DNA of 64,000 nt, taken from the IMG/VR virus record IMGVR_UViG_3300031133_000417, positions 970-64,969 of that record. One strand, given 5' to 3'. The notes under the pieces are model-generated. The model was not told the origin of the DNA. It was given only the letters and a program-made list of their open reading frames with translations, and searched no databases. This stretch comes from a virus. How positions within the stretch are numbered: position 1 is the stretch's first letter; every line of letters starts with the position of its first letter. This document shows, piece by piece, positions 22,502 through 43,550 of this stretch. The translations under genes were made by a program, and so were the position numbers.

Positions 22502-22703
22502 TGAAGTTTATTTACTGTTTAAAAAGCAATGGGGCTACTGGGTCGCGGATCACGCTGCTGTCACCCCATTGTTGCTCTCGGTTAATCGACCTACCGATTC
22601 CAAACGGAGTACCTTGTGTACTCACCTGCATCTGATTTCTCCTAACGGCTATCAGCAAACGGACCTTAGGTTCTGCATACTAAAAAGCATGCTACCGACG
22701 GTG

Positions 22704-22776
22704 CGGAGAAGAAAGGAATCGAACCTTTGACCTGAGTGTTAACAGCACCCTGCTCTGCCTATTGAGCTACTTCACC
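22704..22776 (-). tRNA. tRNA-Asn (GTT)
   Basis: Cloverleaf: GGTGAAG/CTTCTCC acceptor (one U-U mismatch), anticodon loop CTGTTAA, T-loop TTCGATT, G73; no encoded CCA. Confidence 0.9.
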
Positions 22777-22918
22777 AAATAGCGGTCTTTCCCGCTGGTC
22801 ATTTCGTTTTACTATCCAAAACGACCAAAATCCAGACAGCTTCGTACTGACAAACCCGATACCCCTCGCTTTTTAGACAAAGGAGCCTTTCCTGATATCG
22901 GCTTACTTACGCTCCTTG

Positions 22919-22989
22919 CGCAAGTACAAGGATTCGAACCCTGATCAATGGTTTTGGAGACCACCATACTACCGTTGTACGATACTTAC
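22919..22989 (-). tRNA. tRNA-Trp (CCA)
   Basis: GTAAGTA/TACTTGC acceptor, anticodon loop CTCCAAA, T-loop TTCGAAT, G73. Confidence 0.9.
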
Positions 22990-23288
22990 GTGTTGCAGAT
23001 CCACACCTTACGACTTCTGCTTGCCGGTTCTCCTTATGTGATAGGAAAGGGTATTTATGACGATTAATTCCCCTCTATGATCATAATGAAAAGGATGCAT
23101 CCTAATTCGCCCAATGATCTAGACCTTTTTTCCATTCCCTGAGCCAGACGATCCGCTGAGTATTTCATCAGACTAACTAGCCTCTTGCTTGCGATCATTT
23201 TTGTTTTGCAGGAAGGAAATTACTTCTTTCGCTTTTCAAAAAGGAAGTGTGCGCCATCCGGCAACACACTTATCTAAACTAACGCTCG

Positions 23289-23362
23289 ATGCGGGGGGCG
23301 GACTCGAACCGCCGACCTGAAGGATATGAGCCTTCCGAGCTACCAACTGCTACCACCCCACA
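23289..23362 (-). tRNA. tRNA with CAT anticodon (Met/fMet-like, atypical)
   Basis: TGTGGGG/CCCCGCA acceptor, GAAGG-CTCATAT-CCTTC anticodon arm, GGCGG-TTCGAGT-CCGCC T arm; one extra base in the D stem. Confidence 0.85.
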
Positions 23363-34661: not shown

Positions 34662-35327
34662 TTATGATTTTATTTTTGCCCCGGGATATGATCTCAATAA
34701 TTCCTCTACTTCTGCTCTTACGGTATCATAGACACCTAAATCATCAAATTCAATGGAGAACTTAACAGCAGAGACTTTCGGCTCTGGCTCTTCTTCTACC
34801 TCTTCAGGTTCAAAGTCCATCAGGATCATTCCGAATCCTTCGATTTCTTCCTTATCCCAATCTGCTTTGATTAAATCCCAGTCATCCTGACCGAAGCCTA
34901 CGTTATCCTTGATTACAATCGCACGGAGTTTAGCAACTGGTGTATTGGAGGGCACAATCTTGCAAGGAATGGCTTTGGATGATCGCAGGTTATTGATAGC
35001 CGATAGCCAGGCTTTGAAATCAAGTCCGTTATCCTTCTCCTCTTGCTTCTTTTTAGCAATCAACTCGCTGAACGCAGCCTCATCCATGTTGGAAACTTCA
35101 ATGGTAGCCTTGAGTCTCATGTTCCCGGCCAGAGCCACATAGGCCGCAGCGTACTCGATAACAATTACCTCACGCAATTCCAGCATCTCTGGATCATCCT
35201 GAATTGATTTCACCAGGGCTTCATACCTTTCATCCCTGATCAACCGGGGATTCTTTGGCAAGCCATGTATTTGACCATCGTTAGGCCATATTTGTACGGT
35301 CGGGATTAATTTTATCTCTACTATCAT
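34662..35327 (-). CDS. ParB/Srx N-terminal-domain protein
   Basis: NPRLI...LVKSI..DPEML..R....LAGNMRLKA; likely start MIVEIK at 35327. Confidence 0.8.
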   Translation of the reverse strand: MIVEIKLIPTVQIWPNDGQIHGLPKNPRLIRDERYEALVKSIQDDPEMLELREVIVIEYAAAYVALAGNMRLKATIEVSNMDEAAFSELIAKKKQEEKDNGLDFKAWLSAINNLRSSKAIPCKIVPSNTPVAKLRAIVIKDNVGFGQDDWDLIKADWDKEEIEGFGMILMDFEPEEVEEEPEPKVSAVKFSIEFDDLGVYDTVRAEVEELLRSYPGAKIKS

Positions 35328-35737
35328 GCGCAGGGTATTTGGTTGAGGTATTGTTCTGTGATTGATGTAACGGACGCTTTGAAAGATTTTATTTTCATGT
35401 AAGCGCGGGCTTGCCCGATGTAGTAATGGGCATTGGTGCCAGAATCCCCCAGGCATTTAGCGAGAGAGCTGCGCAGTCCGTTCCTTAATTTGCAGTCAAT
35501 GATCAGCGCGTCTGGATTAAAGAGCCTGAGTATTGTTGCAATGAATAAAAGTTTGTGCTGGTAGTCCGTGTTGGGGTGGTAGGATAGGCAGACGTAGTCA
35601 TATATTTCCCTGATCATGATCAGGTCATTCATCACTGGCGTGATATTTTGTTGTGCTTCCTGTATTAAGTGCGGATAAGTCACAGCGATTACTTTCAATA
35701 ATCGAGCATCAATCGTTAACTGTTTCACATCTGCCAT
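35324..35737 (-). CDS. Conserved phage protein, possible late-gene regulator
   Basis: First gene of the packaging operon; helical; function inferred from position only. Confidence 0.6.
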   Translation of the reverse strand: MADVKQLTIDARLLKVIAVTYPHLIQEAQQNITPVMNDLIMIREIYDYVCLSYHPNTDYQHKLLFIATILRLFNPDALIIDCKLRNGLRSSLAKCLGDSGTNAHYYIGQARAYMKIKSFKASVTSITEQYLNQIPCA

Positions 35738-35769
35738 ATCCCATTCACCGTTTAGGCAAATGTAAAAAT

Positions 35770-35797
35770 ATTACACGATATTACCAATAGGTAATAT
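35770..35797. promoter_or_regulatory. ATTACA-N4-ATTACC-N4-GGTAAT site
   Basis: Extended palindrome ATATTACCAATAGGTAATAT upstream of the packaging operon. Confidence 0.7.
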
Positions 35798-35809
35798 TCT
35801 TGATAAAAT

Positions 35810-35832
35810 AAAAAGGCCCTAAGGCCTTTTTA
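35810..35832 (-). terminator. Intrinsic terminator of the three-gene moron
   Basis: AAAAGGCC-CTAA-GGCCTTTT. Confidence 0.55.
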
Positions 35833-35835
35833 TTT

Positions 35836-36372
35836 TTATTCAGGCATATTTATATGGTTTTCGTCGTAATTAGCGATGACTTTGAGAGTTTTTAATAGTC
35901 TTCGTCTGAAGAAGGTCTTCATCGAAGGTGGCTTATTTTTACTCACTTTAATACCATCTCTATAAAACCAAGCTTCTGTATGAGCATAGTTACAAATGCC
36001 TGGGGCATGTTCTGGTAATAACTGACATTCTACCATCTTTCCCTGAAGGTTAAAAGGTACAGGTTCTATCATCTCACCCACAGTAACACTGATTATTCCC
36101 CAATTAGAATAATGTTGACCATTATCTTGTATTCGTGTATTAAAAAGAACATCGTATTCTGTAGAGCAATATTTTGATCGATTATATGAATCATCTTTAA
36201 TTTCAAATAATTCAACACCGATTGTATCATCATCTCGAAAGTCAGCGGGAAGAGGTGTTTGAATTCGTCTATAAAGAACTTCGTCAGGTTCAAAATTAGG
36301 ATCCTCAGGCCTGTTTGATATCCATAGCCTTTGCGGAATACTCATCATCGGACAAACCTCATTTTCATCCAT
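35836..36372 (-). CDS. Putative ADP-ribosyltransferase-fold toxin/effector
   Basis: LYRR ... SYNRSKY ... H.P...NYAH pattern. Confidence 0.5.
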   Translation of the reverse strand: MDENEVCPMMSIPQRLWISNRPEDPNFEPDEVLYRRIQTPLPADFRDDDTIGVELFEIKDDSYNRSKYCSTEYDVLFNTRIQDNGQHYSNWGIISVTVGEMIEPVPFNLQGKMVECQLLPEHAPGICNYAHTEAWFYRDGIKVSKNKPPSMKTFFRRRLLKTLKVIANYDENHINMPE

Positions 36373-40002: not shown

Positions 40003-40203
40003 ATGGCTCTAAAATCTAAATGTCCAAGATGTCAAAACACTTCATTTGAAATAGTGACGGAAACCCCTAAAGGATCAGCCTTTAAAATGCTTTTCACCAG
40101 GTGCGCTTCATGTCAGACGGTGGTCGGTGTAAATGAATACTATAACACAGGCGCACTCCTTGAAACTTTAGCCAAGAAACTTAATATAGACCTCTTTCGT
40201 TAA
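40003..40203 (+). CDS. Small zinc-ribbon protein
   Basis: CPRC and CASC pairs; opposite strand to neighbours. Confidence 0.7.
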   Translation: MALKSKCPRCQNTSFEIVTETPKGSAFKMLFTRCASCQTVVGVNEYYNTGALLETLAKKLNIDLFR

Positions 40204-40247
40204 GGCTTCACCTTGGGACATGTCCTGCGACATGTCCCATTTATGTC

Positions 40248-41096
40248 CTACAACTCTGCCTCTATTGTTTCATTAACCTTCGCCGCAGCTGGTAGATCGA
40301 TCGGGTAATTTGCAGTCAGCACCTCAACCTTCCGCTTCTGGTACCCGCTTTTACTATTCACCGATACATTCTGCTCTACGCTCCAGGTAAACCATCCGTT
40401 TGATTTAGAGTACTGCTTCAGCAATGGTGAAGGATAAGAGCTCATCAGGAATTTACCTTTTAACTCAGACAGTGTGATCAGCAGGTTTTCAAAGTCCTGC
40501 TGGCTGTATCCGTCATAATGACCACAGTCACTATTAAAATACGGCGGATCCAGATAGAAGAATGATGCTTCCCGATCGCGGCCCTTAATTATGTATAGCG
40601 CATCAGCCGACTCAATCTGCACATTCTGCAGCCTGATTGCCATATCCTCAGTAAACCGATCACGATTATTGATGATCTTTTTCGTGGTAGTGTTCTTGCT
40701 TATATCATACCCCCAGCTGCTGTCGAGCTGCGCACTGAAACTTTGGGAACTCAACACCCACACCGCCCAGGCTCTGCGTATCTCACTGAACATATCTGGG
40801 TGATTGTAGATCACCGACGCTTTACGATGCAGATCTCTGCTGTGCAGGCTAATCCTGATCTCCTTCTCCAATCCTACAAACTCGTTTTGGACCATCTTGT
40901 AAAAGTTAATAAGCTCTTTGTTGGTATCATTCAGCACCTCAATCTCTGAGGGTTGTTTAGCGAAGAACACAGCAGCACCGCCAATGAATGGCTCGCAATA
41001 CAGCGTGTGTTCAGGGATTAACGAAATGATCTTGTTAGCAAGTTTCTGTTTGCCACCATAGTAGCTAATTGGTGTTTTTAAATTCTGTTTTGACAT
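40248..41096 (-). CDS. Dam-like N6-adenine DNA methyltransferase
   Basis: SYYGGKQKL, EPFIGGAAV (motif I), DPPY (motif IV); likely start MSKQ at 41096. Confidence 0.93.
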   Translation of the reverse strand: MSKQNLKTPISYYGGKQKLANKIISLIPEHTLYCEPFIGGAAVFFAKQPSEIEVLNDTNKELINFYKMVQNEFVGLEKEIRISLHSRDLHRKASVIYNHPDMFSEIRRAWAVWVLSSQSFSAQLDSSWGYDISKNTTTKKIINNRDRFTEDMAIRLQNVQIESADALYIIKGRDREASFFYLDPPYFNSDCGHYDGYSQQDFENLLITLSELKGKFLMSSYPSPLLKQYSKSNGWFTWSVEQNVSVNSKSGYQKRKVEVLTANYPIDLPAAAKVNETIEAEL

Positions 41097-41101
41097 ATTA
41101 T

Positions 41102-41216
41102 TTTTCTTAGTTTTGTTATTCTCACGACTTCTTAATGCATACAATGCGGCCGATGCTATACGCATCCAGCATGCATTTGTATGCAAACTTTACGAGGTCG
41201 TGAGAAACTAAGAAAG
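41102..41216 (-). promoter_or_regulatory. Long nested leader hairpin upstream of the methyltransferase
   Basis: Four nested stems of 11, 9, about 12 and 5 bp, ending 5 nt before the ATG. Confidence 0.65.
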
Positions 41217-41238
41217 GGGCTGGGTGCGTTATTTTATC

Positions 41239-41334
41239 TTAAGGTGGCTTATTGCAAATCGGGCATCTTACCCAGGCTCTCACATCGAACTCCCTCCCAC
41301 AGCAGGTCGCCCACATCTCATGGTTATAAACCAT
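41239..41334 (-). CDS. 31-aa Cys-rich micro-ORF (MVYNHEMWATCC...CPICNKPP)
   Basis: CC and CPIC; overlaps the end of the resolvase gene. Confidence 0.35.
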   Translation of the reverse strand: MVYNHEMWATCCGREFDVRAWVRCPICNKPP

Positions 41335-41820: not shown

Positions 41821-42669
41821 TTAAAATTCCTCATTTACGGCCTGATCGATCGTTGTACCGAATTGCTTCAGGTCTTCAAACCATTCTATTAGCCCCAGCG
41901 CCATGGCACGATTTATCACTTGCGGATCTTCCATCTCATTCTGGAGCAATACGTCGAATGCAGCAGACATTCTCCTGCGCTCATCCTTGTTGATGGCTCT
42001 TTTTGGATCGGCTTCTTTTTTGATCTGGACCAGGGCTTTTGCCTTTAGTGCATTCCTGCGGCTCTCATCAAAATTTATTATTCTGGACCGGCGAAGAACT
42101 TTGAAGACGAAGGTGGCTTCTGCAGGTTGAATGATTATGCCGGTAAGAAAATTTGAGTACAACACACGCAACCTGACTACGAAGTTTTCCCATTGCTGCT
42201 CAGGAGTAGGCTCTGGCTTCGGTAATTTACCTTGCTCTTCGATGTTTAACTGAATTACCTTTGCATCTTTTCTGTTTTCGCTTTCCAGATAGGCCCTTAT
42301 CCATCCCGTAACGCTTTTAGGTGCTATTCCCATAAAGTTTCCATATTGGCCGTCGGATCCTCTTTTGATCGCAATTGACACCTCGTCAATGGAAACAGCC
42401 TGGTATATCTTTTCACTGTTCAGAAAATCTGTGAGGTATATTTGAAGCTTTAAAAATTCTTCAACACCCGGGGCTTTATATCCTGTGTGGTAATATGCTT
42501 TGGTAAGTGCGTCTTTTAGCTTGTTCCCAATCTCATATGGAGCTATGGCTAATATTTTAGGGCTTTTGAATGCTTCTATCAATTCCATGCATTCAATTGA
42601 TGGTGATGAGATAATCTCTCCGGCAACTGATACCGATTGCGTATAGCCGCTTAATTGAACTTCTTTCAT
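41821..42669 (-). CDS. Replication-associated protein (helicase-loader-like position)
   Basis: Follows the initiator gene; EV..AIKRG..G.YG.F motif. Confidence 0.6.
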   Translation of the reverse strand: MKEVQLSGYTQSVSVAGEIISSPSIECMELIEAFKSPKILAIAPYEIGNKLKDALTKAYYHTGYKAPGVEEFLKLQIYLTDFLNSEKIYQAVSIDEVSIAIKRGSDGQYGNFMGIAPKSVTGWIRAYLESENRKDAKVIQLNIEEQGKLPKPEPTPEQQWENFVVRLRVLYSNFLTGIIIQPAEATFVFKVLRRSRIINFDESRRNALKAKALVQIKKEADPKRAINKDERRRMSAAFDVLLQNEMEDPQVINRAMALGLIEWFEDLKQFGTTIDQAVNEEF

Positions 42670-43550
42670 GATTCCGAATTTTGTTTGTTAATGTGGGCCA
42701 GCTTCTGTTGCTCCCAATAATCTGTACTTGCATCGTGCAGATCCAGTACTGCCTCAGCTTTACCTTTTTCTTTTTGCCCGGAACCTTTTTCTTTTTGGAC
42801 CTGGGTCCGTATCCAGTTGTAGCAATGACTGCGGGCATCGTTCAATTCTCTCTTATCCTGCCCTGCTGCCCTTTGCTCATCGAAAAATTCTTCAACCCAT
42901 TTTTTTGCTTCAACCAAATTTCTTAAACCGAGTTTCCTACTCATGTGTTCCTGCCAAACCGTGCTTTGATTTAGGCAGATAAATTCGACGTCATCCATGG
43001 AAGAATAAACCGAAGAGTTCCCGATCGGGATAGGTGTTTTTTGTTGGCGACTTTCCTCTTCTTTCTCCTCTACCTCTCCTTTTTTTGCATTAAACATGCT
43101 TTCCTCTATATCGTTAGATATGTAGTGGTTCTCTGTGGACCCCTTTATTTGTGTGTTTTCAGTATAAAGGGGTTCTGTGTGACCCTCTTTATGAACCCCT
43201 TTTGTACTATTAAGGGGTTCACTGTGACATCCTTTTTTAAGAGAAAGAGGTTCTGTGTGAACCCCTTTGCCAGGACTCTTTAAAAGATAGACAGTGTTAT
43301 TTCTTCTGCCATCACCAGGATCATAACTTATTAATTCTGCTTTCTCCAAGAGCAATCGGGACCTCTTAACTGAACTTACACTGACCCCGGCTTCTGCTGC
43401 CAGTTCTTCCCTGCTCATATTAAAAGGGTTTTTTCTATGAAGATCATTCCACTTATACAGCAGAGCGAAATAAACAGCTTTCTCATTCGGTGTAAATGAA
43501 AACTCTTTATTTATCTTCCAGAAGTGGTTTAAAAGGTCAATGTAGTTCAT
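42666..43550 (-). CDS. Replication initiator (lambda O-like, N-terminal HTH)
   Basis: wHTH-like N-terminus and internal iterons. Confidence 0.8.
   Translation of the reverse strand: MNYIDLLNHFWKINKEFSFTPNEKAVYFALLYKWNDLHRKNPFNMSREELAAEAGVSVSSVKRSRLLLEKAELISYDPGDGRRNNTVYLLKSPGKGVHTEPLSLKKGCHSEPLNSTKGVHKEGHTEPLYTENTQIKGSTENHYISNDIEESMFNAKKGEVEEKEEESRQQKTPIPIGNSSVYSSMDDVEFICLNQSTVWQEHMSRKLGLRNLVEAKKWVEEFFDEQRAAGQDKRELNDARSHCYNWIRTQVQKEKGSGQKEKGKAEAVLDLHDASTDYWEQQKLAHINKQNSES
43127..43268. repeat. Four iteron-like repeats (probable phage origin)
   Basis: GGTTCTCTGTGGACCCCTTT, GGTTCTGTGTGACCCTCTTT, GGTTCACTGTGACATCCTTT, GGTTCTGTGTGAACCCCTTT, spaced about 35-45 nt apart. Confidence 0.75.

Follow-up and report, generated by a model that had tools for sequence, protein, structure and literature searches.

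We show that the hairpin in front of a DNA adenine methyltransferase gene in a 64,000-nucleotide stretch of phage DNA (the whole of which we refer to as the window) forms the centre of a module of ~140 nt, 41103–41238, and that phages of Bacteroidota carry ~100 distinct copies of this module, with Hankyphage p00 and Winogradskyella phage Peternella_1 among the carriers. The module is best read as a portable, two-stranded RNA control element for phage DNA-modification cassettes, which, by analogy with Mu mom, probably holds the modification genes off until the phage replicates. Comparison of the copies demonstrates, at the level of sequence, a conserved rod, a helix between the rod tip and the 3′ tail on the antisense strand, a tip hairpin on the mRNA strand, a promoter-like box, a U-tract and a linkage to modification genes, and a small RNA is probably read from the opposite strand. 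The initial annotation took the hairpin to be the whole element, and overlooked the opposite-strand promoter box, the long-range A:A′ pairing and the U-tract.

The methylase (Table 1) has relatives of 73-89% identity in Pedobacter, Mucilaginibacter and Arcticibacter genomes, with the closest ones in Sphingobacteriaceae, and in the provirus, which is 65.6 kb long, its gene stands after those for PcfK, PcfJ, a probable replication protein and a resolvase of Holliday junctions. One related contig has the resolvase and the methylase as in the window, but carries 961 other letters between 41191 and 41250; a search from the resolvase side retrieved no relatives that could supply an empty site for comparison. 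Similar DNA to a 25-28 aa ORF with a CC-x11-CxxC pattern, located between the resolvase and the element (41239-41325, minus strand), is also present in one related contig; this ORF has no Pfam or PHROG match, and we rejected it as a Com homologue on that ground and because its Cys spacing differs and it is missing from the upstream DNA of related loci. Several other features of the window were noted, i.e., four imperfect, internally palindromic repeats, spaced at intervals of 33-45 nt, at 43112-43273 inside the probable replication gene (42666-43550), which are likely to be iterons of the phage origin; a KAP-family P-loop NTPase gene (PF07693; 37901-39451, minus strand) downstream of the methylase, possibly exclusion or defence cargo; an 11-pair hairpin at 40214-40239, between the methylase stop and a convergent gene for a 66-aa Zn-ribbon protein (40003-40203, plus strand), possibly a shared terminator; and tRNA genes for Asn, Trp and Met at 22703-23362 (minus strand).

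On the minus strand, all four nested helices described in the initial annotation are present where it placed them. Its outer stem exists and adjoins the ATG at 41096, with 10 bp rather than 11, as the 5′ outer strand has three T, and with a spacing of 6 nt rather than 5; the 115-nt element is likewise real but larger, since conservation reaches ~41238, where homology starts abruptly at an A-tract. The minus-strand hairpin has a minimum free energy of -48.8 kcal/mol (z -7.27), with none of 200 shuffles folding equally well, and at -5.9 SD after GC correction it exceeds every other one of 4,260 windows of 120 nt taken from the two strands of the 64 kb. The second strongest folding region of the window, 35681-35910 (-4.5 SD), lies between the ORFs 35324-35737 and 35836-36372. 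Formation of the outer stem is restricted to the mRNA, because the downstream strand of this stem coincides with the predicted antisense promoter; own pairing gives -4.7 kcal/mol compared with -3.5 (sd 0.18) for swapped pairing across the family and -9.0 in this copy, and compensatory changes are seen among close relatives. Scans for sigma-70 promoters and standard terminators gave nothing convincing at the element, and T-rich tracts that could make the upper stem a sense-strand terminator, although frequent across the family, are weak here.

Table 1. Features of the module and of the adjoining methylase gene, in window coordinates
Feature	Position	Strand	Description
D12-class (Dam-like) orphan DNA adenine methyltransferase, 282 aa	40248..41096	-	PF02086, E 7.5e-25; phrog_56
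Outer stem, 10 bp	41206-41215/41103-41112 (span 41103..41215)	-	Covers -7 to -16 of the methylase start
Bacteroidota -7 promoter box TAGTTTTG	41108..41115	+	Predicted antisense promoter, directed away from the methylase
Predicted antisense small RNA, ~120 nt	41118..41237 (ends approximate)	+	Rod, 12-nt linker, G-rich tail, U-tract
Main imperfect rod (lower and upper stems, asymmetric central loop)	41119..41206	either	Nearly all Watson-Crick
Lower stem	41197-41205/41120-41128	-	
Upper stem, one bulge	41173-41185/41136-41147	-	
Tip hairpin A′:B	41152-41166	-	Selected on the mRNA strand
A′ element at rod tip	41160..41170	+	Pairs with the tail (antisense RNA) or with neighbouring B (mRNA)
Element A, G-rich 3′ tail of the predicted antisense RNA	41219..41229	+	Complementary to A′; 11 bp, one G-U
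U-rich tract after tail	41230..41237	+	Predicted antisense terminator; also 5′ boundary of the conserved module

Our set of 150 distinct leaders of related methylases (44-89% identity) contains the same architecture in approximately one-third of cases, behind unrelated upstream genes, and approximately two-thirds of the leaders are without it, so the module is dispensable or replaceable. The proposal that the hairpin is a conserved regulatory RNA tied to the methylase is supported by covariation analysis, in which 23 of 24 pairs change on both sides, a result reached by none of 500 shuffles. Across a 36-sequence alignment, which was fitted to the model and therefore leans towards structure, 91.6% of cells pair, whereas shuffles reach 65% and slid registers no more than 51%; an unfitted alignment of nine sequences has compensatory changes in 14 of the 24 pairs. 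The main rod is paired in ~96% of cells, with all 19 of its pairs varying on both sides, and the family members are related, so that these counts are not of independent events. Each genome carries one copy of the element, and a strict-filter search across the phylum found a match in 2 of 151 genomes; a common chromosomal repeat is therefore rejected for the genomes searched. An apparent relic with an internal deletion, at one locus (L065, 2930-3000), still has its A-tract and promoter box as well as the end of the lower stem.

A search of Rfam 15 gave no family at gathering score in the window or in 20 member loci, and at a relaxed E-value the window region and 13 small loci gave weak, chance-level matches only. 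A PreQ1 match (15.5 bits, cut-off 39) was rejected, as it consists of the A-rich tail only. Other leaders of the same methylase family have structures of their own: in roughly 20 of the 98 leaders without the long element (17 named loci), the ~60 nt leading up to the start contain a short hairpin that covers the start region. Its conserved loop is G-rich, followed by AAGC(A), and this hairpin is a candidate protein-binding translational operator. Six more distant methylases share a third, apparently structured leader ~150 nt upstream, which the model finds unrelated to the long element.

The opposite strand of the module carries the parts expected of a cis-antisense RNA. The sequence TAnnTTTG is the primary promoter element of Bacteroidota (PMC7366714), and when the methylase leaders were sorted by hairpin score alone, with the box playing no part in the sorting, we found it on the opposite strand in 50 of 57 hairpin-positive leaders and in 4 of 93 hairpin-negative ones. 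The -33 TTTG is missing at the usual spacing in this copy, and a -33 element is weakly enriched across the family. Element A occurs as 74 distinct sequences in 93 members and pairs better with its own rod tip than with swapped ones (-21.4 vs -14.7 kcal/mol), and in 82 of 98 members the tract that follows contains five or more T within 8 nt. We find both a conserved opposite-strand promoter box, on sequence evidence, and a helix followed by a U-tract that would give a defined 3′ end, although termination is something we infer because the 3′-end helix is long-range. Taken together, the box, element A and the U-tract delimit a predicted RNA on the opposite strand that is 115-132 nt long and, in nearly all members, has a linker of 8-16 nt between rod and tail, and in this copy the predicted RNA has a fold z of -6.5; the combination of promoter box, long-range pairing and U-tract points to an antisense RNA.

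Evidence for which strand folds comes from wobble pairs, since a G-U on one strand is an A-C mismatch on the other; helices were scored symmetrically, with both types counted. Among flanked non-Watson-Crick pairs in the A:A′ helix, 74 are G-U on the antisense strand and 1 is G-U on the sense strand, and in the tip hairpin A′:B the polarity is reversed, with 69 flanked wobbles that are G-U on the mRNA and 3 on the antisense RNA. The tip hairpin is the stronger on the sense strand in 81 members and on the other strand in 1, the partner of an A in A′ is C in element A in 66 of 126 cases and T in B in 70 of 72, and the main rod shows little polarity. These counts are inflated by relatedness, yet the wobbles are spread over many different positions. 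The opposite polarities mean that A′ bases take different partners on each strand, and both RNAs appear to be under selection. In nested folding the rod outcompetes the tip-tail helix (-47.5 vs -30 kcal/mol), so the latter must form as a pseudoknot, and by our own geometric estimate a linker of 10-12 nt could span the distance only with the rod bent at the conserved asymmetric loop. On the nascent mRNA, A:A′ is predicted to form transiently in 87 of 93 members and then to be displaced by the rod. We raise, as a tentative and rather less likely extension, that a single DNA segment of ~130 bp codes for two functional RNAs with different folds, with G-U pairs choosing the fold on each strand and with the antisense RNA using a pseudoknot-type terminator or a dedicated protein, in which case the module would be a distinct DNA-modification gate across Bacteroidota phages, beyond a plain antisense silencer.

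The masking of the translation start, the central claim of the initial annotation, is predicted in this copy (pairing 0.57 with the leader and 0.10 without it) and does not extend to the whole family. Masking is predicted in 21 of 30 members with an ATG within 12 nt of the promoter box and in 10 of 58 of the rest, and is therefore a feature of a subgroup. Adenines at -11 to -15 favour translation in this phylum (PMC7366714), and these positions are included in the outer stem; the start region by itself is unstructured. The predicted antisense RNA covers the anti-start strand, 41206-41215, and excludes the start region itself.

Scans with DNA patterns that were independent of the methylase, followed by covariance-model confirmation, gave 74 copies of the element, one of them via a genome search. 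The first pattern demanded the lower-stem words and the box, so that its copies cannot test those features, and 15 of the 80 hits of the second pattern were real, the rest being false positives. In 59 of the 70 copies with enough downstream sequence, a modification-type cassette lies within 1.5 kb downstream, and these cassettes include two D12 subfamilies (Dam-like), ThyA-like, Mom and Dcm genes, N6/N4 methylases and an ABC-type cluster, which in one locus includes a formyltransferase and which we take to be DNA-modifying. Other copies precede only the 80-aa gene that is usually at the head of these cassettes (four), a broken ThyA-like gene (one) or holin-like genes (several). In five loci the element precedes holin- or lysis-like genes and the following 1.5 kb contain no modification gene, which represents either loss of the cassette or reuse of the element for another harmful gene. 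In many copies, the gene directly behind the element encodes the 80-aa protein (phrog_17790, with a Mor activator domain annotation in some records; L196:2833-3072, with homologues including p00 40709-40951, where the region of the element is at about 40,540-40,705), and the ThyA-like and methylase genes come after it. The 80-aa protein is absent from this position in the window, and is possibly a dedicated regulator. A short (~212 aa) thymidylate-synthase-like gene is found repeatedly beside D12 methylases, in either order, at seven loci, and this repeated pairing suggests a joint base-modification cassette.

On balance, we consider it reasonably likely that the module comprises a ~120-nt cis-antisense RNA and a folded leader that together silence read-through into the methylase. 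The cassette would usually have no primary-sigma promoter of its own and would be supplied by read-through from the upstream phage operon, since the open frames upstream are co-directional in 59 cases and opposed in 10, and a sense-strand box is present in only 4 of 69 leaders. In the lysogen, the opposite-strand primary-sigma promoter would produce the ~120-nt RNA, whose rod tip, according to the comparative analysis, pairs with its own 3′ tail just before the U-tract as a combined pseudoknot and terminator. The mRNA leader is predicted to share this rod while differing at its tip and, in this copy, to add a further stem that covers the start region. Leaky transcripts would be removed by opposing transcription and by pairing of sense with antisense RNA, probably with RNase III cleavage, and the folded leader would block translation of those that remain. 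Strong lytic read-through would then exceed the antisense RNA, so that methylase is made when phage DNA needs protection. Both the silencing in the lysogen and the lytic release are steps that we infer by analogy with Mu mom.

The same antisense RNA might instead activate the cassette, by pairing with the linker and the 5′ arm (the anti-start strand) or by bringing RNase III to the leader, and so free the A-rich start region; the position of the predicted RNA, which spans the anti-start strand and spares a start region that alone is unstructured, speaks for this. We nevertheless consider activation unlikely, as the lysogen, in which one would least expect a modification gene to be switched on, is where a primary-sigma promoter should be active, and as members with distant starts are seldom masked by prediction, and would thus usually have nothing to unmask. 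It is distinctly unlikely, in our estimation, that the antisense RNA is a stable, compact fold acting in trans on a phage or host protein, as a regulator, decoy or cofactor, with the overlap in cis merely coupling its synthesis to the cassette. The conserved pseudoknot geometry and the central asymmetric loop do exceed the needs of plain antisense pairing, and the 5′ end is paired; against these stand the unrelated folds of the partner enzymes, the existence of close methylase relatives (77-83% identical) without the RNA, and the wide variation of its sequence. A reading along the lines of the initial annotation, in which a sense-only hairpin masks the start and gives way to a protein, to RNase III or to folding during transcription, leaves the 74:1 antisense polarity, the box and the U-tract as incidental and unexplained, and no conserved Com-like gene accompanies the element; even with the outer stem and tip hairpin selected on the mRNA, the transient A:A′ pairing on the nascent transcript, and the short start-masking hairpins in other leaders of the same enzyme family, we regard it as decidedly improbable.

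Two further readings carry still less weight. A structure acting at the level of DNA, such as a cruciform, a single-strand recombination site or a protein operator that mobilizes the cassette, would agree with the sharp 5′ boundary after unrelated genes and the near strand symmetry of the rod, and is very improbable given that the promoter box, the U-tract and the G-U polarity are signatures of RNA and that genomes have a single copy. We give the least credence of all to a riboswitch sensing SAM or SAH, a possibility floated in the initial annotation. The element does lie upstream of SAM-dependent methyltransferases in many phages, but it has few invariant unpaired bases and it also precedes Mom and ThyA-like genes, and this range of unrelated modification genes (Dam-like, Mom, Dcm, N6/N4, ThyA-like) speaks against SAM sensing. 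The accompanying remark that no SAM aptamer consensus is visible holds, with no SAM family reaching its cut-off (the best, SAM_alpha, gave 19.3 bits against 36, E 2.4, at one locus).

Bacteroidota phages, including the widespread gut Hankyphage, bear interchangeable DNA-modification genes, and to our knowledge, how these phages keep such genes off in the lysogen without Com has not been described. In this phylum, which lacks Shine-Dalgarno initiation, the module is one testable answer for no fewer than five types of enzyme, and the opposed G-U polarity of two helices with common bases makes it a clear case of two-strand structure selection. Lysogens of Hankyphage in B. thetaiotaomicron with induction-time transcriptomes exist (PMC12135933), and the main prediction may thus be checkable in published data.

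The module, as proposed, would act like known cis-antisense and leader controls, yet fits no tested family. In P22 Sar, lambda OOP, IS10 RNA-OUT and hok/Sok, a short opposite-strand RNA limits a harmful or timing-sensitive gene, and the Hok mRNA is folded and blocked for translation; the RNA predicted here differs in that it spares the translation start region and in that its terminator helix is a long-range tip-tail pairing. The Rfam D12-methyl motif (RF02950), which we take to be a candidate RNA upstream of D12-class methylase genes, is a 64-position model that matched none of four records at E ≤ 1 (that of the window and three element-carrying genomes). We find the family neither in Rfam nor in the literature searched, which includes the main text of the Hankyphage paper, where a keyword search met no mention of such an RNA. 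Fremin et al. 2023 (PMC10690425) reported four candidate structured RNAs upstream of N6-adenine methyltransferase genes, a gene context that they have in common with the module, and these candidates may overlap with the present family. The DonS-type cis-antisense RNAs of Bacteroides, which are 78-128 nt long, divergent from susC genes and repressive (PMC7366714, PMC11697453), are similar to our predicted RNA in phylum, size, position relative to the regulated gene and proposed repressive role, but differ in that the targets here are phage DNA-modification genes and in the conserved rod and pseudoknot and the selection for structure on two strands; homology between the two was compared via Rfam alone. 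A parallel in regulatory logic is the com-mom control of phage Mu, where the harmful mom gene is repressed in multiple ways, including by a divergent promoter (momP2) and a start-masking hairpin, a translation-inhibition structure that Com opens (PMC3299994, PMC3378877, PMC6483171). What the module appears to have in common with it is tight control of a phage DNA-modification gene and an opposing promoter (predicted here), along with Mom and methylase genes as interchangeable cargo; a hairpin over the start region, as in Mu, is predicted for this copy and for a subgroup of members. Unlike com-mom, the module has no conserved Com gene (in the window, no Com zinc-finger gene is directly upstream), and its opposing promoter appears to yield a defined, structured and terminated RNA from a ~140-nt module with tip-tail pairing.
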